A stretch of 64,000 bases of DNA from Phyllosticta citribraziliensis (GCF_038025025.1 NW_027117345.1:1612001-1676000), one strand, 5' to 3'; positions 32,842 through 64,000 are shown, numbered from the stretch's first letter. Notes: generated by a model from the letters alone, not told the origin. Numbers and translations: made by a program.

Positions 32842-34866
32842 TTACTCGGTGATGAGCTTGGTTATCTTGCCAATCGCGATGGTTTGACCCTGGGAAAAGT
32901 TAGCTTACTGCGAGATCTAACAAAATACATTGGAATAGAATTACCTGGTCTCTCAGCGTAAAGCGTCCCATCTGCGGGTAATCCTCGAATCTCTCGACAC
33001 AAACACTGCCCGCACCACCAGTAACGGACAGGCGAGCAATGATGCTCATGCCCTTGGTGGCGAATCCAGGAGGCTTCTTGCTCTTCCTGCCGGTGCCCTT
33101 CTCCAGCTTATGCAGCAGGGCGTCAAAAGTTACTTCTTCCGTAGCAGAGTGCACGTGAAGGACACAGTTGAAACCGGCCGAGAGAATGGACTTGAGGTCG
33201 AGCAGGACAATCTGAGCCTCGAATTTGGAAACGCAGTGGACGGGCCGCTTAGGAGAGCAAATGACGAAACCGGGCAGGATGTCTTCTTCTTCAATGCCCC
33301 TCAGACGGATGCGCACCTGTTCACCACAAGTAGCGGCCTGGATTTCGTCTTCCGTCTCGCCATAAAGAGCAGCGATATCAACCTGCTCACGGTTGGGCAT
33401 CATAAGGTACTTGACGCCCTTCTTGACGACACCAGCCTCAATCTTGCCCTCAACCATGGTACCCAAATCCTTGTACTTGGCAGAGATGGGCATCATGAAA
33501 GGAGCATTGAGCTTACGTTCCAGAGTTTTCATGTTGTCGAGGAACTCGAGCAATGAAGGTCCATCGAACCACGGGCAAACTTCCTTGGGTACTCTGTCCT
33601 TGATACCAAGAGTCGTTTGGGCAGAGACGGGCATGAAAGTGAGATCTGTGAGTCAGAGGTCAGCATTGAAACAAACACTGTCGAATTTGTCTTACCAGTC
33701 TTGGGGTTGTAGCCAACACCCTTCAAAAATTGCGTGAGCTTCGAAGTACACTCCTTGTAGCGCTCTTCGCTCCACTCGACCGTGGGGTCGTCCATCTTGT
33801 TGACAACAACGACAAGCTTGTTGACGCCCTGAGTCTTGGCAAGCACGGCGTGCTCTCTTGTTTGGCCGCCCTTTTCGAAACCAGTCTCGTACTCGCCCTT
33901 GCGGGCAGAAATGACGAGAACACCAACGTCGGCCTGGGACGCGCCTCCAATCATGTTGGGCACATAAGTCTTGTGGCCGGGGGCGTCCAAAATTGAGTAA
34001 CGGCGCTTCTCAGTCTCGAAGAAACCCCTGCCGACTTCCACAGTCTTGCCCTTGGAACGTTCTTCCTTGGTCAAATCCAGAGCCCACGACAGGTACCAGG
34101 TCTCACGGCCAGCCTCCTTGGCCTCCCTCTTGTACTTGTCCATGGTCCTCTCGTCAACCATGCCGGTAGCGTAGAGAATAGAACCTCCCAAAGTAGACTT
34201 TCCGGCATCGACGTGGCCCAAGAAAATGACGTTAACGTGCTCCTTGCCGTACATTTCGGCCAGAGTGTCCTCGTCGACGTCGGCGGACTGTTCCTGGGCA
34301 ACCATGTCGGCCTGTTGCTTTGCGGCCTTGATCTCGGCTCTGGTAGGGCTGCTTCTGCCGGTCGATGGGGTGGGCGACGTCTTGCCAGATGCCGCGGGTC
34401 CTGCAGCTTCTCCAGTCTTTTCGATGGCCTTGGCTGCGGTGACCTTCTTTCCGGCCTCTGGGGCGGCCTTGTCCTTGTCCGCAGCAGCCTTTGCGGCTGA
34501 TGCGGCAGGCTTGTCGCTGGCGGCGGGAGTGCCGATGCTGAGCACCTTGGTAGCGCCGGCCTTTTCCAGCTTTGGAGACTCGCCACCCACACTGAGCACC
34601 TTGGTGCCACCGGTCGATTCGACCTTTGCGCTGCCATCTCCGCCGATGGACAGAGTCTTGGGCTGCTTGGGCGCCTCGGCTGCAGGAGCAGCGGCGGGCT
34701 TGGGCGCAGCGGGCTCAGCCTTCAAGTCGTCGCCTCTCTTGGCAATCTTTGGAGCCTGGCTTTGTTGCTGCTGGGGTTGGAAGTTTTGCTGCTGGTTGTT
34801 GTACCCGCCATATTGCTGGTTGCCGCCGTAGCCATAGCCCTGTTGGCCGTAGCCATATTGGCCATA

Positions 34867-34903
<37 letters not shown>

Positions 34904-35160
34904 CCATATTGTGGGTACCCTCCATATCCTTGTTGCGCACCACCACCGTAGTATTGCCCGTATGGCTGCTGGTAGCCGCCGTAGGGCTGGAAGGACTGGC
35001 CGGGGGTAAACGTTGCTGCGCCGGGAGTGAAGGCGGCGGCACCAGGAGTGAAGGAGGGCGCGCGCGCAGCGTTGTTGATGTTCATTTGCTGCTGTGCCTG
35101 TTGGGCAAGGCTCTCATCCTGAGCGTCCTTGTCGTCTTCCCACGAGTTGAGATCAGCCAT
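32842..35160 (-). CDS. SUP35: Eukaryotic release factor 3 (eRF3/Sup35)
   Basis: Q/G/Y-rich N domain, GHVDAGKST, LDAPGHK, NKMD, GRFTLRDQ|GQTIAIGK; two introns. Confidence 0.97.
34867..34902 (-). repeat. (CAG)11 + CAA trinucleotide repeat encoding polyQ in the Sup35 N domain
   Basis: Read directly as a CTG run on the + strand; translates to Q12. Confidence 0.9.
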
Positions 35161-53984: not shown

Positions 53985-56900
53985 TCAACGGGCTCTCGCC
54001 TTGGTGTTGGCATAGAGCAACTTGAATCCGTTCTTCAGACTGCGCATGTCCGGATACATGTTCCTCTGCAGCTCAAAGGCGTTGGGGATGATCTTGACAG
54101 GCCAAGCTTGAAATGGCGCGTCACGGCCGGCTTTGAAGCAGAGGTAAAAGTAGCCCGGAAACTGTGGGCAAAGGCAGAAGGCGTACATGCTGCGCTTGGG
54201 GTTGGCCTCGGTGTAAGTCGAAAGCCATGCTTCTGTTAGATACGTTAGCCTCAGTGTGCCATGTGCAAGATTTGAAATGCGGTCATCATCGCTTACCAGT
54301 CTGCGCCCTCGTGCCGTTGTTGTACTTCTCATCGCCCATCATCTCCTCCACCTTCTTCGCCATGGCTTTGACGTGGCCGACAATCAACTCGTCGAGATCC
54401 GAGTAGGTGAACTTGCCGCCAATCTTGAGAGTGCGGCCCAGAGAAAACTCATTCTCTTTGTCCAACTCCAGGACGTCAATGTGTTGATACACACCATCAG
54501 CCACCTTCCAGGTCACAGCCAAGTGATCCAGGCCCCTGCCTGATGGTCGGATCACCACATCACCACGACTGTGACTGCCCAAGAACTCTTCGGCCTGGGC
54601 GGCATTGAAAGGCCGGAACAGCGGGTGCTTGATGACGCGCTGGGCGCGGCCCGTCTTGCTCTCTTTATCTTTTGCCTCGGCGTCCCTGTCAGCCTGCTCT
54701 TGTTCAAAGTCCCACTCGCCTTGCTGCCGCTCAATGTGCCTCTCGAAGCCCGACTTGAGAGATTGCTCGTCGAGAGATATTGTCGCGCTGAAACCTTTGC
54801 GATTCAGGAAAAGGAGCTTCGCCTGGACGGTCTGGTTCGATTGGAACACCTGGCGTGGGTCCACACCGCGGTCGCCGCCAACGCTGCGGGGCAAGTTGTG
54901 CTCATCCGCTACTGCTTCGACACCACAATCCAGGCGCGCTTCGACGCGGTCGGGGAACACGCGACGAATCTTGACAGGAACAATCATACCCTCTGTCAGC
55001 GATTCCCGAGTCTCACCTGTCAACATGGTGAAGACTTCTTCCGAGTTGAGGTAACTGTACTTGTTACGCAGTTCCTCGTAGGGGACTTGCAACTCAGCGC
55101 GGATGGTCTCGAGGGTGGCGCGCTTCTTTTGGTTGAATTGTTGCTCCAGCTGTTCGGCATATTCTTCCAAAACGAGATCGTTGACCTTGTCTTGAGCCTC
55201 ATCACGCACCAGGCGCTTGACCACCGCAGCAGGTCCGTTCTCGTCGACCTCGGCCTTGATGTCTTCCTCGTCCATTTCGAGCGCGTCGGCAGCCATCTTG
55301 CGGCCAAGCTCGTAGTCTTCGGGGTGCACACGAGTGCCGTCGAGATACTCGGATTCGGGATCGGTAGACTCGTGCGGGATGTACAGGAAGCTGGCGCAGT
55401 TTGTCCACACCTTGAAACCAACGGCCGGCATGATTTTCTTGTCTGGATCGCCGACCAGTTCATCTCGGCTGTTGACCACGCCTCCGTTGAGGTTGATGAC
55501 CTTGAGAAGTTGCTGTGCCTTGCGGGGACCAAGGCCACATACGTGCGGCAGAAGGGTAGCCAGGTATGGATCTTGCAAGGCTTCGTTGATATCAACTCCC
55601 ACAAGGTTGACAATATCGACCAGCGCCATTTCCAAGTACTTCAGCAGTTTCTCTTGAGACAGGAGATTCTGATTCGGGTCGAAGGAGATGGATATGATGT
55701 CTTTTCCAAGAGCGGCGTACTCCTTGAGTGGGCTCTGGATGTAATGCCCAAGGGCGACACAGTACTTGACAAGAGATGGTACTCCGGGGTGCTCTATATT
55801 CGACCTGTCGCTGGTGTGGTAGAGTCTGGCGACCTCATCATTCACAATGACGACCTCCAGCTTGTCGTTCTTTTCTTGACCGTCTTCATCTTCATAGTCG
55901 GCGCCGCGGAGATCATGATCGTCGACAATCTGTTGGAGGTCCTTGAACAGCTTGCGAGTCTCGGCGGAGAAACCCGAAACTGCGAGGACGTCGGGCCGGA
56001 ATCCCCAAACCATTTTCTTGAAATCTTCAATCTCCTTGGCGTCGGCTATGTACTTCTCTTTGTTGCCTGGATGAAGGTCAATGTATTTGCCAGAATCTGT
56101 CATGAGACCTTCCTCGTTGACACACGCATAGCAAATCGCGTCTCTTCCAGGTATGCCGTTGCCATTCGAGAGCGCAATGACGCGTGGAATCGTGCCGAGG
56201 GCCATTCCCTTTGGCTTGTAAGGAGCCTGGTCCAGCTTCTCGGTGAATTTATCTCTGCAGGACTTGGCCAAGGAATTCTCGCACTCGTTGCGCAGAGACT
56301 CCTTGACTCCCTTGGAGATGATGCGGTCGAGTCGTGGCAGTGCAATGGACAAAATCTCGCGTCGCAGGTCATTCCAGGCTTGAGCTACATCACTGCGGTT
56401 GTCTGTGCAGAAAATGTCTTCGAAGTCCTTCCTGATACGGTCTTGGTCCTGCAAGCGGATCTTAACTTCGACCATGCCCTCATCCTCGGCTTTAAGCATG
56501 CGAAGGAAGAGTTCTGGTCTACGAGCCACGGCCGAGTAACCTTGGTTGCGGAGGTACTTGAATTCGTAGTAGGGATGGTCATCTGTGATTTTCCGCAATC
56601 CTTTCTCGGTGCGGTAAACGTCCAAAAGACCGTTCTCGTAGTAAAGTCGCCTCATGACGTGGCGCATTCGTGGACTCATGATTAGCTCCTCGGCGAAGGT
56701 CGTCTTGGCAGCACGAAGCACGTTCTTTCCAGTGTTGTACTCTTCGTCGATGAGGCTGTCGGCCATGTCCTCGGGCGCCTCCTGGGGGTCCTCTGTGTAC
56801 ACTCGATGGCCGTCCCTGTTGAGATTGTGCGCCAGGTCATCAGATGCAATGCCAACAGCGCGCACGAGGCTGTAGGCCTTGCTGGCACGCATCCTCTCCC

Positions 56901-58419
56901 ATCGCGTAGAGCTGGCGCGAGCTTTCTTTTGAACGCCCGTCGACTCTGACTCGGCGATTTCTACGTCCTTAAGCTGGGCCGAGTATTGGAAATGCACATA
57001 GTCCTGGATATCCTGAATCTCCTCAATGGTCTCCGCCTTGTCGAGCAAAGTCTCCAACACCTCGTCCTTGATTGATGAAAAACTGCCCAGGTTGTCACGG
57101 GTCCGTTGCAAGGCCTCAACCTTTTCCATGTAGGCGCGGAATTTGAGATCGAGCTCGAATATTTCCCACAGATGAGCTTGGGTCAGGAGTCGCTGGGGTC
57201 CCGCATTTGCGTCGGCATCATCAGGATCTTGGTCCGTGCTGGAGTGGATGAGGTAGTCTTTCCTGTGGTTGAAGATGAAGGGAACCTCCAGGTCCTCGAG
57301 GTTCATGAATTCAAGCACTTTCCGAACCGCTTGCTGGAAGGGCTCGAGCAAGGAAGGGCTGAGCCGCGTCTTGGGCCAAAGCAGCTTCGATATCCAGACG
57401 TATTCCGTATTCAATCTTGTCGTCATGTCTTCCTCGGACAGCTCAAGCTCCTTGAAAGGCTTCCGGGCAATCTGGAAGCGCTCCGGGACGTCGTTGAAGC
57501 GAATAATGTCGTCCTCTTCCGTCATCATTTTCTCGGCAAGTTGCGCCGGCTCGAAGACGTCCTTGAGCTCCAGCGGCTTCTCGTCGCCACGGTCCTCCTC
57601 ATCCATCTCTTCCTGAAGTTGCAGCGCCCAGTCGTATTCTGTGCCATCACCGAACGCGTTGCGGTAGTCCTCCATTTCAGCCTCATCCAAGCCAGCCTCG
57701 GGGAACCCAACGACGCCCGGCATTCGTTTGCCAGGCCTGGCCACCTCGCGGTCTTCCTCGTCCTGCAGACCTTCCTCGTCTTCGAACACGTCTTCTTCGA
57801 TGAAGTCGGCAAACTCGTCGTTGATGCCGCCCCTAGGCTCGCGACGCGAAGGGCGCTCGTCGTATCCATCGCCGAGGTCGTCGTCTTCGTCGGAGAAAAT
57901 TTCGTCTACGCCGCGGGGTGCCCTGGGGGAGCGTTCTTCTCGGTGGCCACGCTTGAGTCGCTTAAACTTGGACTGTTGGGGGGGTTAGAAGATGATCAAG
58001 CTACGAGTCGGGCTACACAGACCTGAGTGGGTTCCTCACGCGGAACCGTCTCGCCAATGAGGTCGAGATCTTCCTCGTCAAGGGCGGCTTCCTCCTCTTC
58101 GCGTTGCTCGCGCCTCCGCTTGCGCTTCTCGCGTCTTCGAGCCTTGCGGTCCTCCTCATCATCCTCATCCTCATCCACGATGAAGCCTTCGCGGACCTGC
58201 GACGTGTTAACAATTGGACCGTGGTGAGGCGCGCGTGCATGCACTTACGGCGCGGGCTGCCTCCTCGTCGTCATCGTCGTCTTCCTCCTCGCTGGAGTCA
58301 TCGACGCCTGGAGCACGATTGCCATTGCGCTGCTTCTGCTCGCCGTTTTCCTCGTCGTAGTCGCCGTCGTCCGATTCACTGCCCAGCTCAGCAGCGACAT
58401 CGAGCAGGGAGGCGGCCAT
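53985..58419 (-). CDS. SPT6: Transcription elongation factor / histone chaperone Spt6
   Basis: Acidic N-terminus ([18 protein letters not shown]), [27 protein letters not shown]2 region RVIKHPLF...HIDVLEL; three introns. Confidence 0.95.
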
Positions 58420-58670
58420 GTTGGGGTGAGGATACGGCAACGGGGAAGGAAAGAGGGAAGAGTGGCGAGGGTAGAGCGCGTCTCGAGAGGCGGCAGGCTG
58501 AGAAGGAGGGTGAGGCGGTGGGCGAGAGGTGAGTGTTGAGGGCGCAGGGAGTCTTGATGTTTGGTAGCAATGGAACAGACTTGAGCTCGCGGGCCAAGGA
58601 AGATGGCGCTAACAGCGAGGGCGGTGACGGAGGCATCCGAAGAACGGCCGCGGTCGTCCGCGTTGGCAGT

Positions 58671-58715
58671 GGAGCGGAGAGGAGCGGAGCGGAGAGGAGC
58701 GGAGCGGAGAGCGGA
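58671..58715. repeat. (CGGAG/AGGAG)n pentanucleotide microsatellite upstream of SPT6
   Basis: ggagcggagaggagcggagcggagaggagcggagcggagagcgga read directly. Confidence 0.8.
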
Positions 58716-59685
58716 CATCACGTGAGAGTTCGTTAGCGGAGGGGGTCGGAGGAGGAGCGGAGGTGGAGGGCACGCATGGATGCATGTCAGACCACAGAGA
58801 CGCCCGGAGATGCACGACTTGACCTCAACCAATCGAATCTTTGCTTGGCCGGCGCACAGCACAGCACAGCACACCCTCGCCCTCACCCTCACCCTCACCA
58901 CCAGATCTGCTAACATGGAGACACAGCTCAAGTCCGTCTAATGAATGCTCGCGCTGATCGTGGGCGCGCTGGTTCCACGTGAAACTCGCGTCCGGGTGCG
59001 CTGGAGCCCAGGCGACCCGGGCTTCATGGTCGTCGGCCGTGATTGATGCGGATCACGCTCCTCTTCTCCGCAGCCACGAGAGTGAAACAAGACCCGCTGT
59101 CGCAGCCAGCCCGTCGTGGTTGGTGCATCATGACATTCAAACGTTGAAATAGCGACGCCTCTCCTCGCCGGCCTGGACGTTCTGAGGTGTACCCTTTGTC
59201 AACCTACCTGTACTAACCAACCCTGTCCGTCCTGCCAGGGCCTGCGTCATCCACGACTTGGTTTAGCCCAAGCCACCACGGCTTCTTTCGTCAACCACTA
59301 GTTGCTTCCAGCTGCTCTCTGCTGCTGCGCACAACTCCATCTCGCCCTCTCCTCCTCTCTGCTGACGCCAGGCCCTCGCAATCTTTGCTTCCCACCACCA
59401 GACCCACTCGCAACCCCCAAAGCGGCAATCCAATAGTCGTACCGCCGCACTGCACAACGGCCACCACCTCCTGTCGCCTGCACCCTGCCGATTGGCGCAT
59501 CCCGCCGACTCCTCGCACCCCACGCCGAACCTGCTCATAACCGCCGCAACCACAGGCCCGTCCTGCGGCCGCCATCCAACCCACCTAACCTACCCTCTTA
59601 CTCTCTTTCTCCCTTCCGACTCCGCTCGCTCGCCACTCCCGACCTATACGACGCCGCCGCAGTCCCCCGCGCGCATTTGCCCGAC

Positions 59686-61232
59686 ATGGCCGACCAGTTC
59701 AAGACAAGGACTATGAAGAGGAAGAACGTCAAGGGCCTGGCCCTGAATGCGCCTCAGCCCAGGACCATGCAGTCTGGCGCTGACGCTCAGATGCCTGGTT
59801 CCCGCAGAGACGACGACGACAGAGCCGCCGGCCAGCTCGAAATCGGCGTCGAATTCAGGCTGGACCTGCGAGCCGAAGATCTCATCGTGCTCAAGGAGCT
59901 CGGTCACGGCAACGGCGGCACCGTGAGCAAGGTGCAGCATGCCGCGACAAAGGCCATAATGGCGCGCAAGGTGCGTTTCTTGAGACGAGACGGTGGATGC
60001 CGCGCCCTTGGTTAATGCGCCCTCCAGATCATCCACGTCGAAGCCAAAAACGAGGTCCGGAAAAGAATTGTGCGTGAGCTACGCATCATGCACGATTGCG
60101 CCTGCCCCTACATCGTGTCCTTCTACGGCGCCTTCCAGAATGATTCCGGAGACGTCGTCATGTGCATGGAATACATGGACTGCGGGTACGCTTCGACGCT
60201 TGACTCGTCGGGACATGGTTCAAGGCTAACTTGGCACTAGCTCTCTCGACTCCATATCCAAAAACTTTGGCCCCGTCCGAGTCGATGTCCTCGGAAAGAT
60301 TGCTGAAGCAGTCCTCGGCGGCTTGACCTACCTCTACAAACAACACCGCATCATGCATCGCGACATGAAACCCTCAAACATACTAGTCAACTCCAGGGGA
60401 CAGATCAAGATTTGCGACTTTGGTGTGTCAAGCGAGTTGGAAGGCTCCGTGGCCGAGACGTTCGTCGGCACAGGCACCTACATGGCACCTGAGAGAATAC
60501 AAGGTGCCAAGTACACGGTCAAGTCAGACGTGTGGAGCGTCGGTCTGACTTTGATGGAACTCGCGATTGGAAAGTTTCCTTTCAACAACAGCGACGCGGA
60601 CGATGAGACCGGCGGACCGCAGGGCATTCTTGACCTGCTCCAACAAATTGTCCTGGAACCAGCCCCCAAGCTCCCCAAGAGCGACGCCTTCCCCACCATC
60701 TTGGAGGACATGATAGCGCGCTGCCTGATGAAAGACCCAGAGCAGCGCCCCACTCCCCAAGAGCTCTATGTGCGTACCTCTGTCCAAAGCTGGGTCGAGT
60801 GTTGCTAATCCGTCTTACCAGGAATCCGATGCCTTCATTCTTGCCGCAAAGCGCACCCCTGTCGACCTTGCCGCCTGGGCAGTGAGCATGATGGAACGCC
60901 AGAACCGCAAGTCACATCTGGCACCACGCCCGCATAGCGCCAAAACTCGCGAAATGCTTCGCTCCTCGCCAAACCACAGCCCGCCGTCTTCAGTCTCCGC
61001 AAACCAAAACGACCGCAACCACGGTACCTCCAGCTCTTCCGGCCAGACTCCACGCTCCGCAACCAGCCAAGAATCCTCTGGCGCACGGAACGGCGACAGG
61101 CTTGATCGTCCTTCCTACCCGACACGCGCCAGTAGTACAGGTCAACTGAGTGGAGGTCAGCCGATGCAATTGCCCATCCGCCCAGCACCACCGCCAACGA
61201 CCCCACTGCCGCATCCACCTCGGGGAATCTAA
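59686..61232 (+). CDS. STE7: MAP kinase kinase Ste7/MkkB/Mek2
   Basis: D-site MKRKNVKGLAL, ELGHGNGGTV, HRDMKPSN, DFGVSSELEGSVAETFVGT, YMAPERIQG; three introns. Confidence 0.93.
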
Positions 61233-61810
61233 TCTCGGGGACAAGACAAACAAGACACGAGAGGGACCTTGTTGGTGGAAGTTCTCCACATGTGAGAACC
61301 ATGTCTTGAAAGTGCAAGGTTTACACTTGAAACCATCATCCACATAGAGCATGTCAATGTGGACTACTTCAAGTGAATCAAACAAACCTTTTCATTAAGT
61401 TTCTTGGAAAAGATAGAGGGGGGACGATGATGATCCAAATCCAACACCCAAACAGGGAGTTTTTTGCTACCATTCAGACTTTTTCCAAACTGCGTTTGTG
61501 CGGGCACCGTTGTTATTTCTCCAGCTTTTTTGTCGTTGTTTTCTTGTGTGTGAAGTAGCAGCATGGCTGGGCGCTTGTTACTTTTCTTGACTTTTGTTCC
61601 TCCCATTCTTCCCGCATTTGGTCGGTCAAAGCCGTTGTGCGATTCTGGCGGTGGTGGTTGATTTGTTGGCTGATTTCATTTGGGAATGGCGCATTTGGGT
61701 GCGTGTGAGGAGGCTCCATGCGCGAGGAGGTGCTGACCGGCGCGTGGTCCCTTGTAGAGGAGAAGTTGATGCAGATCAAATGTAAAACATTGACAATGCG
61801 TGTGCTGTCA

Positions 61811-62250
61811 CTGGGAGCATTCGTGAGCCGTTACAAGGTGAATATGCTTAGGGAGCATCTGTACATGTACCAAGGCAGTGGGCACCTAAGGAACATTCAT
61901 AAACTCACCCCCGCGATGTGCAAGGAGCATTCATCAGCTAAGGTGGGTTAGCATTAGGAGCATTCTCACGTTTACTCCTTGGGCAGCAGCTAAGGAGCAT
62001 TCATGGCCTATTTATTGCCTTTCAACTCAGGGAGCATTCAAACGCTATAACCGGTATAGCTGAGGAGCGTTCATACATGTACTCGTTGGACAGGAGGGTA
62101 AGGAGCATTTAAAAGATACGACTGGTACAGTCTAGGAGCATTCATGCGTTTACTCCCTATATAGAAGGATAGGGAGCGTTCATAAGCTGCAGTGAGTCGG
62201 CTTAGGGAGCATTTAAATGATACTACAGATACAGCCCAGGAGAATTCATA
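61811..62250. repeat. Regularly interspaced short-repeat array (13 copies of GGAGCATTY core, period 33-38 nt, divergent spacers)
   Basis: Core starts at 61814, 61852, 61890, 61924, 61957, 61994, 62031, 62064, 62102, 62135, 62173, 62206, 62239; consensus about TA(A/G)GGAGCATTCAT. Confidence 0.92.
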
Positions 62251-62371
62251 CCCACCCCTAACTGCCTAACCCGCCATATGCATATACACATCCTACACAT
62301 TCCTAGTAACCGAACCTATCTTCCGTAGCACGTATTTCAATCCATTAAGCAGCCTTAATCCTCACCAAACA

Positions 62372-62518
62372 GCGGAGTGTCATAGTGGTTAGAGCACATG
62401 CTGATGATAGTAGATCATAGAATTGCCCGATTGGGCAAGAACGTAGAACTGAAGTAAACCCTTTCATCCATTATAGACTATTTATCTAGTGATCCTCCGT
62501 TCGAACCCAAGCCGCCGC
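62372..62518 (+). pseudogene. Degenerate tRNA-like / Pol III type-2 element
   Basis: A-box/D-loop-like TGTCATAGTGGTTAGAGC (62378-62395), B-box/T-loop GTTCGAACCC (62499-62508), terminal GCGG/CCGC pairing; D and T stems poorly paired. Confidence 0.45.
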
Positions 62519-62682
62519 CGCCCCTGTACCTAGTCTAGTATGCTGGGTTGTCTTTCTGCTGCTCCTTAAGGTGAGTGAGCAGCTTATGCGGCGGATTTTC
62601 CAGCCTGCCGCCGACCTCGCGGACTACGTAGCCGCAATCAAGATTGAAGCCGGCCGGGTCTATGCGCACTATAGTTTGCCTA

Positions 62683-63598
62683 TCAGTCTACACTCCTATG
62701 CAAATGCAGGGGAACTTTACCAGGGACGTAGTGGGTTGGGATGGTGCCAAACTCGCAGTCCAAGCCTCTGGCAACGCACCTGGCGCAGGGCCAGGAAAAG
62801 TGCGCATGGCAGCGCCGATGCGAGATTGCGCGTTCGCCACAGCGGACAATCTTGTTGCCCCTGGTAGTGGCCTCAAGCGCGGTGTACGCGCGGACGAAAG
62901 TGCCCATAGGCGGGGGAGGAAGGCCTTCGGTCGCCCAATGGGGGGGAGGGCCGTCAAGGGGCCGTTTACCCCAGCCTTTGATGTCCTTGACCTTTTGTGC
63001 ATGTTCGGCCGTGATGGGCGCGAGCTGGGCGGGAGTCGAGGGTGGCGGCGGCGGCGGCGGAGCGGCGAGAGCAGGGTCAGGGGCTGCATGGCCCAGGGGA
63101 AGCTGGCCAACAGCTGGAGCTTGGTGGTGGTGGTGGTGCTGGTACGGCAGCTGCGGTGGCATGTTGTAAGGGTTGTCGGGACCCTGAGCGTTCTCGGCGG
63201 CGTGCAGCAGCTGGAAGTTTGCCATCGAATTCACTGTGATTCATGAGTTAGAAGATCCTACTGACAGAAGAGTAAACAAAGTACTGACCTGGCACCACTC
63301 CTGGCACCACTTGCTCCTGAGGAGCTTGCAGCTGCGCGTACTGCGCCTGCATGTGCTGCTGCTGCTGCTGCTCCGTGTTCTGGAGGCCGTCCTGGGGGCC
63401 ATCCTGGAGCTCCTGGCGACCATTGTGATGATCGATGCTGCGTCAGAGACACCGCGCCCACTCGAGAGCGGCCCAGGAAAGGTTTTTCATCCCACGAAAG
63501 CGGTCCGGGAGCGGCGTGTTCTCCTCGTGCCTCTCCAGGTTGGTCTCGTACTCAGCAAAGAGCCTGCTGCATACTGGACACTCGCATTCTCCTGGCAT
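62683..63598 (-). pseudogene. Disrupted gene with degenerate Zn(II)2Cys6-like cluster
   Basis: ATG 63598, in-frame TGA 63443-63445, Q-rich segment, intron 63234-63288 (GTCAGT..CTAAC..CAG) joining in frame to an exon with CGERAISHRRCHAHFSWPCARCVARGLDC. Confidence 0.6.
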
Positions 63599-64000
63599 GA
63601 TGTGGCGATGATGAGGCTCAAATAGGTCGAGATGGGGTAGGGCGAAAGAATGGCAGGTGAGTGTTGAGGTGATGCGAAAGGTGGTGGGATGGACAGGCTC
63701 TGAGTGGGCAGTATGGAAAAACATTGACCACCAAACGAAGTAATTGCTGTCGCCCTCCAGGCGCAACGCCGGCGCCTGTTTTGACCCTAGCCTCGACAAG
63801 ATAGGCCTCTTCTTCCATCAACACTGTATGGACCAACCTCGACATTGGACAGTAATTCCCACATGATGGAATTATCTGAGTTGCCTGCAGGTACGTGAGC
63901 TTTACCGCGAGCCACGTGGCGTTCGTATCAAGGAGAGAAAGCAAATACGATTCGAGACTGAAGATGACAGCAAGGAAACTTCCACCGGCTCCTGGGCCTT

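Follow-up and report, generated by a model that had tools for sequence, protein, structure and literature searches.

A diverged tandem repeat with a putatively constrained box between two convergent genes of Phyllosticta citribraziliensis

How does an array with the look of alternating repeats and spacers come to lie in a fungal genome, and what has kept its repeats alike amid strongly diverged surroundings? The stretch of 64,000 nucleotides analyzed here (the window) carries such an array in its last few kilobases, which a first-pass annotation had described as CRISPR-like, with a protein-binding-site array and an old minisatellite among the possible explanations. On the evidence of its sequence, we regard the array as a diverged tandem repeat with a probably constrained box, a locus of moderate interest until conservation of the box across species is shown. 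In the following, we describe its layout, the kinship of its units and its genomic surroundings, and weigh the explanations that each of these brings up.

Layout of the array and conservation of the box

The array comprises 13 direct copies of a 15-nt box with the consensus YTARGGAGCATTCAT(A), which follow each other head-to-tail on the same strand in units of 33–38 nt (numbered U1 to U13 below).

61811..62250, + strand: array of 13 boxes; the 9-nt cores start at 61814, 61852, 61890, 61924, 61957, 61994, 62031, 62064, 62102, 62135, 62173, 62206 and 62239

The spacings from core to core are 38, 38, 34, 33, 37, 37, 33, 38, 33, 38, 33 and 33 nt. The number of copies and these spacings agree exactly with the first-pass annotation, which had also given all five variant cores correctly. 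Its statement that the mixed periods (33, 34, 37 and 38 nt) rule out a single reading frame holds as well. Of the two ORFs that overlap the array, neither has a match in Pfam, and a search of a protein collection with an 80-aa ORF over the left part of the array, used as a proxy for the DNA of relatives, yielded no candidate.

Next, the frequency of the box was compared with shuffled sequence. The core GGAGCATTC has 34 matches in the 64-kb window when at most one mismatch is allowed, a count reached by one of 100 shuffles (mean 20.6, sd 4.7); 12 of these matches are located within 61814-62247, all on the + strand, and 22 are scattered elsewhere. The 13th copy of the core, GGAGCATCT at 61852, differs at two positions and was found by direct reading. 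With the longer 12-mer AGGAGCATTCAT and up to two mismatches, 17 matches were obtained in the window, 11 of them in the array, versus 5.6 ± 2.7 in shuffles, none of which (0/100) reached 17. The six further matches outside the array compare with 5.6 expected, and weight-matrix matches of at least 8 bits in the rest of the window number 26 versus 22–37 in five shuffles. As the box is not enriched outside the array, there is no sign of a wider regulon, for which 64 kb is a small sample. A k-mer clustering scan picked up no further array of this type in the window.

Conservation around the core extends from position -3 to +11 (15 nt) and amounts to 18.2 bits with small-sample correction; the 18 columns from +12 to +29 average 0.11 bit each. 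A MAFFT alignment of the 13 units likewise showed conserved columns confined to the box, with G4, G5, A6 and T10 invariant. Over all 13 copies of the 9-nt core, 8 of 117 positions depart from the consensus; one core variant, ending in T, is common to U9 and U12, and another is common to U8 and U11. The base directly 3' of the core is A in 10/13 units, G in 2/13 and T in 1/13. Scored with the weight matrix, the 13 boxes reach 16.4–22.6 bits, a circular measure as the matrix was made from the same boxes, and the edge units U1, U2 and U13 rank among the four weakest. The flanks reach a maximum of 6.9 bits on the left and 7.9 bits on the right, which gives the array sharp edges. Tandem Repeats Finder reported no repeat at the array even at a score of 30, and this fits units that are strongly diverged outside the box.

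Besides that, some short words were noted at the array and its borders. The telomere-repeat-like words CCCTAA and CCTAACCC occur at 62256..62272, directly right of the last box, two boxes have TTAGGG at their left edge (at 61848 and 62202), and the word CACTG adjoins the first box on its left.

We also looked for arrays of this type in sequence collections and in the literature. A pattern scan for three cores at the spacing of the array returned at least 116 metagenome, at least 120 prokaryote-genome and 18 viral loci, collections that contain few fungal sequences, so that the scan says little. The loci inspected (15 displayed) turned out to be ordinary homogeneous tandem repeats with unrelated units. 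In the window and the 254 loci listed, we counted 159 chains of three or more copies; among these loci, no chain of at least five copies had a spacer identity below 0.45 except the array in the window. Its value in this comparison is 0.36, and the next ones (0.49 for locus L088 and 0.50 for locus L081) belong to ordinary repeats shifted by indels. Literature searches with the motif and its reverse complement gave, among the papers listed, apparently only primer or unrelated matches, and searches for intergenic tandem repeats in Phyllosticta or fungal minisatellites with a conserved core and variable spacers gave nothing relevant as judged by title and start of the abstract.

Kinship of the units and descent by duplication

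To describe how the units are related, we refer to the following elements of the array.

61921..62235, + strand: central part with alternating unit classes, short (33 nt: U4, U7, U9, U11, U12) and long (37/38 nt: U5, U6, U8, U10)
62099..62145 versus 62203-62249, + strand: internal duplicate pair, 47 nt, 83% identical (BLAST against the window)
61955..62076, + strand: block of about four units, paralogous to 62133-62251, 123 nt, 67.5% identical (BLAST)
62153..62176, no strand assigned: best local inverted repeat, an 8-bp stem in which the end of spacer U10 pairs with the start of the next box

In the identity matrix, units of the same length class (short with short, long with long) resemble each other most. 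A family of four 57-nt repeat copies, with 60–70% identity and spacings of 107, 71 and 71, suggests together with the alternating units a dimer of about 71 nt that consists of a short and a long unit. Judged by these patterns and by the duplicates listed above, the array has grown by duplication of units and blocks, in the manner of a minisatellite.

The spacers carry traces of the same descent. In local alignments, three spacer pairs (U5-U10, U5-U8 and U9-U12) exceed the 99th percentile of the scores of shuffled pairs, and a fourth, U2-U8, equals it; the mean of the top five spacer scores was reached by 0/300 shuffles. Gapped global alignment gave a mean spacer identity of 46.4% versus 43.6 ± 1.0% for shuffled spacers (0/200 shuffles reach this value), and the best pairs show 72% (U9-U12), 70% and 65% identity. 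The first-pass annotation had called the spacers mostly dissimilar, which is right at about 46% identity but misses their weak, significant mutual homology. When the region was compared with the 64-kb window using BLAST, the spacers matched nothing outside the array beyond 11 nt.

The boxes have diverged far less: on average, two units are identical at 87.5% of the core (9 nt) and at 72% of the box (15 nt), and each of the 78 unit pairs shows lower conservation in the spacer than in the box. Since the units descend by duplication, box and spacer of paralogous units are of the same age, yet their divergence differs greatly. Even divergence along the unit, as in ordinary neutral decay, is the result that had been named beforehand as speaking against a special status of the motif; what we found is strongly non-uniform divergence (87.5% in the core versus 46.4% in the spacer). 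The earlier suggestion of an old minisatellite with selection acting on the motif alone essentially matches this picture of two unit classes, block duplications and a core that is much better conserved than the spacer.

However, a contrast between box and spacer might also be produced by mutation. Short hairpins are enriched about 2.7-fold in the array, where 13 stems reach 5 bp or more and form 8 distinct hairpins; shuffles give 4.9 ± 2.7 stems, and a count of 13 was reached by 5/500 shuffles and by about 1% of 282 tiles of the window. The best inverted repeat has a counterpart in U5, the homologue of U10, where a 6-bp version of the stem at 61975-61997 is built from different letters; the spacers of both units open with an identical 10-nt stretch and then differ abruptly. 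Stems maintained with differing letters could reflect selection for the hairpin, but they could equally reflect template-switch mutation, a mechanism that acts at quasi-palindromes.

The latter possibility leads to an explanation without function, according to which the array is a decaying minisatellite with hypermutable spacers and a box that was merely spared. Palindromes in the spacers would invite template-switch mutations and indels, which alter a group of bases in one step; the box, not being palindromic, would be open to point mutation only, and unequal exchange would maintain the similarity of the central units. Several observations agree with such a course of events: an intergenic gap between two 3' ends tolerates neutral repeats, hairpins are enriched, the weakest boxes belong to the edge units, and box sites were not found elsewhere in the 64 kb. 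The abrupt change between U5 and U10 after their shared 10 nt, with a perfect stem of its own in each, resembles block replacement and not point decay. On the other side, nearly all spacers are saturated, with 46.4% identity against the shuffled 43.6%, and 8 of 117 core positions have changed. Neutral decay would thus need an approximately ten-fold contrast in rate that alternates every 15–20 nt across 13 units, and we know of no neutral process that gives such a contrast. The roughly eight hairpins face 13 spacers, the diverged U1, U3, U6, U12 and U13 being without any, and unequal exchange should homogenise the spacers as well. Altogether, we consider functionless decay unlikely, although it deserves to be taken seriously. 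If the array were only a decaying repeat, it would still serve as a caution that arrays with the appearance of repeats and spacers arise in eukaryotes without CRISPR-like biology.

Neighbouring genes, transcripts and window content

The array is located between two convergent genes, and a third gene illustrates the relationship of the window to other fungi.

59700..61746, + strand: upstream convergent gene, MAP-kinase-kinase-type protein kinase (Pfam Pkinase, E 4e-45; introns 60185-60239 and 60770-60821; stop 61230-61232); its start near 59700 derives from ORF translation only
62461..64000, - strand: downstream convergent gene, Q/H/P-rich (introns 62669-62720 and 63234-63288; stop 62535-62537)
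54286-57984, - strand: Spt6 gene, 97% identical to a Phyllosticta paracitricarpa protein

In comparison with the Spt6 proteins of Lasiodiplodia, Neofusicoccum and Diplodia, identity drops to 76%, which places the source of the window with the Phyllosticta-like Botryosphaeriales. Overall, the window represents a gene-dense fungal housekeeping region with 78 ORFs of at least 170 aa, whose matches include dynamin, nucleotidyl transferase, kinases, helicases, tRNA synthetase and translation factors. The downstream gene contains a stretch that weakly resembles a Zn(2)Cys(6) cluster (Zn_clus, E 0.0078, below the Pfam cut-off).

Sequencing runs were used to place the array relative to the transcripts of its neighbours. 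Two of them, X2 and X3, bear no RNA label on record and were assigned to RNA from their spliced contigs only; they behave as RNA because the contigs are spliced at introns of 52–55 nt with GT..AG or CT..AC borders. The kinase-gene contigs stop at 61746 in run X2 and at 61741 in run X3, from two studies, and a DNA run continues beyond this point, which we take as a weak hint of the 3' end of the kinase transcript. The RNA contig of the downstream gene extends down to 62461. Between the contig ends of the two convergent genes lies a gap of 714 nt, most of which is filled by the array; it starts about 65 nt beyond one contig end and stops about 210 nt beyond the other. No abundant RNA contig of X2 or X3 covers 61747-62460, and this lack of cover does not equal silence. 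The metagenomic DNA run X1 is identical to the window where it covers it, leaves 61862-62123 uncovered by its contigs and possibly stems from the source sample, so that it gives no independent support.

One small contig of run X3 comes from within the array. It consists of 159 letters at a depth of 3.7 and contains the insert 61996-62138 with sequencing adaptor on both sides. The insert ends inside boxes four units apart, at the third base of the U6 core and the fourth base of the U10 core. According to a rough estimate, the chance that both ends fall in cores at a near-equal offset is a few percent. In our interpretation, the two ends (core base 3 at the 5' end, base 4 at the 3' end) resemble a 2-nt staggered cut after fill-in.

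Another explanation is that the box acts as RNA, with the array transcribed under unsampled conditions or by read-through from a neighbour. The array could then be a multi-site decoy for an RNA-binding protein or a small RNA, or it could be cut at the boxes into unit-length RNAs. This explanation includes the small-RNA precursor proposed in the first-pass annotation, which our results neither favour nor contradict. Arrays of a short word on one strand are the architecture of multi-site decoy RNAs such as the DSR clusters of meiRNA, CDR1as and the A-repeat of Xist; the boxes of the present array likewise share a single strand, and its constraint is limited to a short word. The X3 insert with both ends in boxes is a single weak observation in the same direction, which could also be explained by contaminating DNA or by copies of one molecule. 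Against a role as RNA, a global fold is absent on both strands (z = +0.16 on the + strand, where 52/100 shuffles fold as well, and z = -1.63 on the - strand, 4/100), and an Rfam search of 58000-64000 with E up to 1 found no family in the array and one chance-level viral match outside it. Furthermore, the mapped RNA contig ends of the neighbours fall outside the array, and no spacer matches another part of the window beyond 11 nt. We therefore consider an RNA-level function of the box improbable.

Other RNA features and signals were searched for in the same region. No tRNA was found in or around the array. A tRNA-like stretch at approximately 62363-62519, in which words resembling A- and B-boxes had been seen by eye, was rejected, as ARAGORN needed a lowered threshold to report it and gave it an aberrant geometry, and Rfam had no match. 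A scan for bacterial promoters and terminators stayed at chance level and is not applicable to a fungus.

The X3 insert also raises the idea that the box is a specific site of cleavage or processing, with the array being cut either at the RNA level, into guide- or decoy-like multiples of the unit, or at the DNA level, by a nuclease or recombinase specific to the box. We see a very slight chance for such a site. It is kept above zero because of this single insert, and one fragment proves nothing. If it did exist, it would amount to a eukaryotic repeat-unit system without a described fungal counterpart.

Short, variably spaced direct repeats near the ends are typical of DNA transposons such as CACTA, hAT and Mutator elements. 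Accordingly worth considering is a relic of a mobile element, either in the form of subterminal transposase-binding repeats, as had been proposed in the first-pass annotation, or of internal repeats of a retroelement. The CACTG directly left of the first box would suit such an origin. However, the left flank (61747-61813) and the right flank (62251-62460) are not linked by any inverted repeat, there is no second, inverted array, and the boxes are all on the + strand with none elsewhere in the 64 kb. No transposase, integrase or reverse transcriptase family was detected in the 73 of 78 long ORFs scanned (five antisense or alternative-frame ORFs were left out), and on either side of the gap lies an expressed, spliced host gene. 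With neither flanking inverted repeats nor transposon genes found, the proposal of transposon repeats has no support, and we regard a mobile-element origin in general as very unlikely.

The same set of 73 ORFs contains no Cas family, in agreement with the earlier remark that cas genes are missing nearby. A fungal CRISPR-like adaptive system with spacers acquired from invaders would share with this locus the visual layout of repeats and spacers, and the array does keep this non-canonical resemblance. In all other respects the comparison fails. The spacers are homologous to each other and were copied in blocks (83% and 67.5% identity), the repeat has no hairpin and is strongly conserved over 9 nt and detectably over 15 nt versus roughly 23–50 nt in CRISPR repeats, and the surrounding genes are eukaryotic, with spliceosomal introns and without a cas-like gene among them in the window. 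In addition, no similar array was found among the 254 loci listed from the metagenome, prokaryote and viral collections. The short, unstructured repeat, the kinship of the spacers, the eukaryotic host and the lack of cas genes together lead us to reject a CRISPR-like system, an explanation to which we give practically no credence.

A candidate binding-site array compared with known systems

The explanation that we tentatively favour is an old minisatellite with a constrained box, in which the boxes form a homotypic array of DNA-protein binding sites and perhaps a boundary or roadblock element. An asymmetric 18-bit word that is kept in 13/13 units amid randomised surroundings is best explained by sequence-specific recognition. 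The case for constraint is built on the comparison of units within the array, at a single locus, and from it we infer both the binding of a protein to the box and an action of the array so bound. Several copies of one motif stand against a variable background here, as is expected for a homotypic cluster.

The proposed sequence of events would start from an old tandem repeat in which units of two types, 33 and 37/38 nt long, alternate. In each unit, one asymmetric box of 15 nt would have been kept almost unchanged, and the 18–23 nt between the boxes would have drifted to a near-random state. Each box would then be a putative site for one sequence-specific DNA-binding protein, making the locus a homotypic cluster of 13 equally oriented putative sites. 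Such a cluster may act as a boundary between the two genes, whether as a roadblock to transcription, as a fail-safe terminator or as a polar barrier to replication forks. A boundary role is proposed because the cluster is located where the polymerases of the convergent genes run out.

Some features of the array tell little about this role. The equal orientation of the boxes results from tandem duplication and is therefore no evidence for a polar function. Concerted evolution would also give weak boxes at the edges (U1, U2, U13) without any function. Helical phasing of the boxes is absent (Rayleigh p 0.23–0.71 for periods of 10–11 bp), and with the boxes out of phase, cooperative binding on the same face of the helix is not indicated. 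Of the earlier idea of a phased array of protein-binding sites, the binding sites are retained as the preferred mechanism for the constraint, but the phasing is lost, and so is the assignment to TEA factors. The consensus of TEA/ATTS sites (AbaA, Tec1) is CATTCY. This word occurs once in the array (61961), that is, in 1/13 boxes, and in most boxes CATTC is followed by A; a TEA/AbaA cluster was rejected for this reason. Long, asymmetric motifs of high information are typical of multi-finger or Myb-repeat boundary proteins. The box matched none of the factor sites tested. We presume a partial resemblance to the sites of Reb1, Sph/GT-IIC, Tbf1 and other factors, and claim identity with none of them.

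If the box does bind a protein, the array would represent a compact, natural boundary, terminator or fork-barrier element with 13 sites in a filamentous ascomycete, and its box would be a ready high-information motif for fishing out the binding factor. To our knowledge, insulator and barrier elements are essentially uncharacterised in filamentous ascomycetes outside the rDNA and outside yeasts.

Among the known systems, CRISPR arrays are similar in that a constant word alternates with variable filler, here with a period of 33–38 nt. Closer in descent are minisatellites, which may keep a protein-binding box within diverged higher-order units, as exemplified by the CENP-B box in alpha satellite and the 'core' sequences of Jeffreys. 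The array shares with minisatellites its head-to-tail units of 33–38 nt, the dimer of about 71 nt, the block duplications and the weaker edge units. In contrast, ordinary minisatellite units diverge evenly and are detected by Tandem Repeats Finder, whereas the present array goes undetected and has its divergence outside the 15-nt box.

A further parallel is offered by the gypsy insulator of Drosophila, where a conserved motif is likewise combined with variable sequence between the closely spaced sites. Its binder Su(Hw) is a 12-zinc-finger protein of which we know no fungal counterpart. The insulator belongs to an insect retroelement and has another motif, whereas no mobile element was found here and the binding sites are putative. 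As far as the accessible part of the source describes it, the insulator consists of Su(Hw) sites, 12 in number and tightly clustered, within the 5' UTR of the gypsy retroelement, and how it functions depends on how many sites there are and how they are arranged (PMC3384341). On this description, both loci present about a dozen close copies of one motif within a few hundred bp.

For budding yeast, the accessible portion of another study describes DNA-bound general regulatory factors, Reb1 among others, that roadblock RNA polymerase II and replication forks (PMC5052057). The array is similarly placed where the polymerases of convergent genes would meet. The yeast roadblocks differ in being single sites with other motifs, and the available text of that study describes no tandem array of 13 sites (PMC5052057).

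Finally, the fork barriers of fission yeast provide a fungal case with repeated sites. In the accessible part of its description, region B of RTS1 spans about 450 bp, contains four repeats to which the Myb-domain protein Rtf1 binds, and acts as a polar barrier that stops forks coming from one direction (PMC10473836). It differs from the present array by its four repeats versus 13, its other sequence and its position at the mating-type locus, and Rtf1 is specific to S. pombe according to the same text (PMC10473836). Nevertheless, RTS1 and the Ter/Reb1 barriers of the rDNA are fungal, non-coding elements that work in one direction, and region B of RTS1 is, as far as that source describes it, composed of direct repeats for one binder (PMC10473836), with a size of about 450 bp that matches the 440 bp of the array.

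Telomere-like words and an array-internal fragment from run X3

Immediately past the last box of the array (13 same-strand copies of a 15-nt box that carries a 9-nt core), two words resembling telomere repeats, CCCTAA and CCTAACCC, are located at 62256-62272, and the left edge of two of the boxes (at 61848 and 62202) reads TTAGGG. These words may have arisen by chance or may hint at a putative telobox-type binding site.

Besides that, public sequencing run X3, treated as RNA on account of its spliced contigs, yielded a contig of 159 letters (depth 3.7), in which a 143-nt insert corresponding to 61996-62138 is flanked by adaptor at either side. Both ends of this single fragment (n = 1) fall within boxes, namely at core base 3 of unit U6 and core base 4 of unit U10; the fragment could represent DNA contamination or copies of one molecule.

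A tRNA-like stretch and simple repeats

Other elements observed around the array and elsewhere in the window were as follows:

62363-62519, to the right of the array: tRNA-like stretch with A-box-like and B-box-like words and partial acceptor pairing
58672-58755: simple pentamer-type repeat, GAGCGGA seven times in steps of 5, 7, 10 and 46 nt
34767-35088: trinucleotide repeat, GCTGCTG words in a run

The tRNA-like stretch, which overlaps the minus-strand gene in its 3' UTR, is broken up by an intervening ~85-120 nt. ARAGORN called it only once the threshold was lowered, with aberrant geometry, and it was not detected by Rfam; it may be a degenerate element of tRNA origin. The GAGCGGA repeat sits in the region that separates the Spt6 gene from the kinase gene, which point away from each other. 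The GCTGCTG run lies within an ORF bearing an EF-Tu-type GTPase domain, where it probably encodes a poly-Q/A-type tract in the N-terminal part.

A recurrent array family in metagenomes

Several gut and fermentation metagenome contigs among the matches listed seemingly belong to one recurrent array family, whose units of 33-39 nt have a similar core at their start, differ through indels and are preceded by an AT-rich stretch.

Members of the metagenome array family among the matches listed, by basis of assignment
L006, L016, L045, L081, L088: whole upstream and downstream context examined (five loci)
L010, L033, L077, L078, L103: matching spacing patterns only

This family was retrieved only because it has a 9-mer in common with the fungal array, to which it is unrelated.
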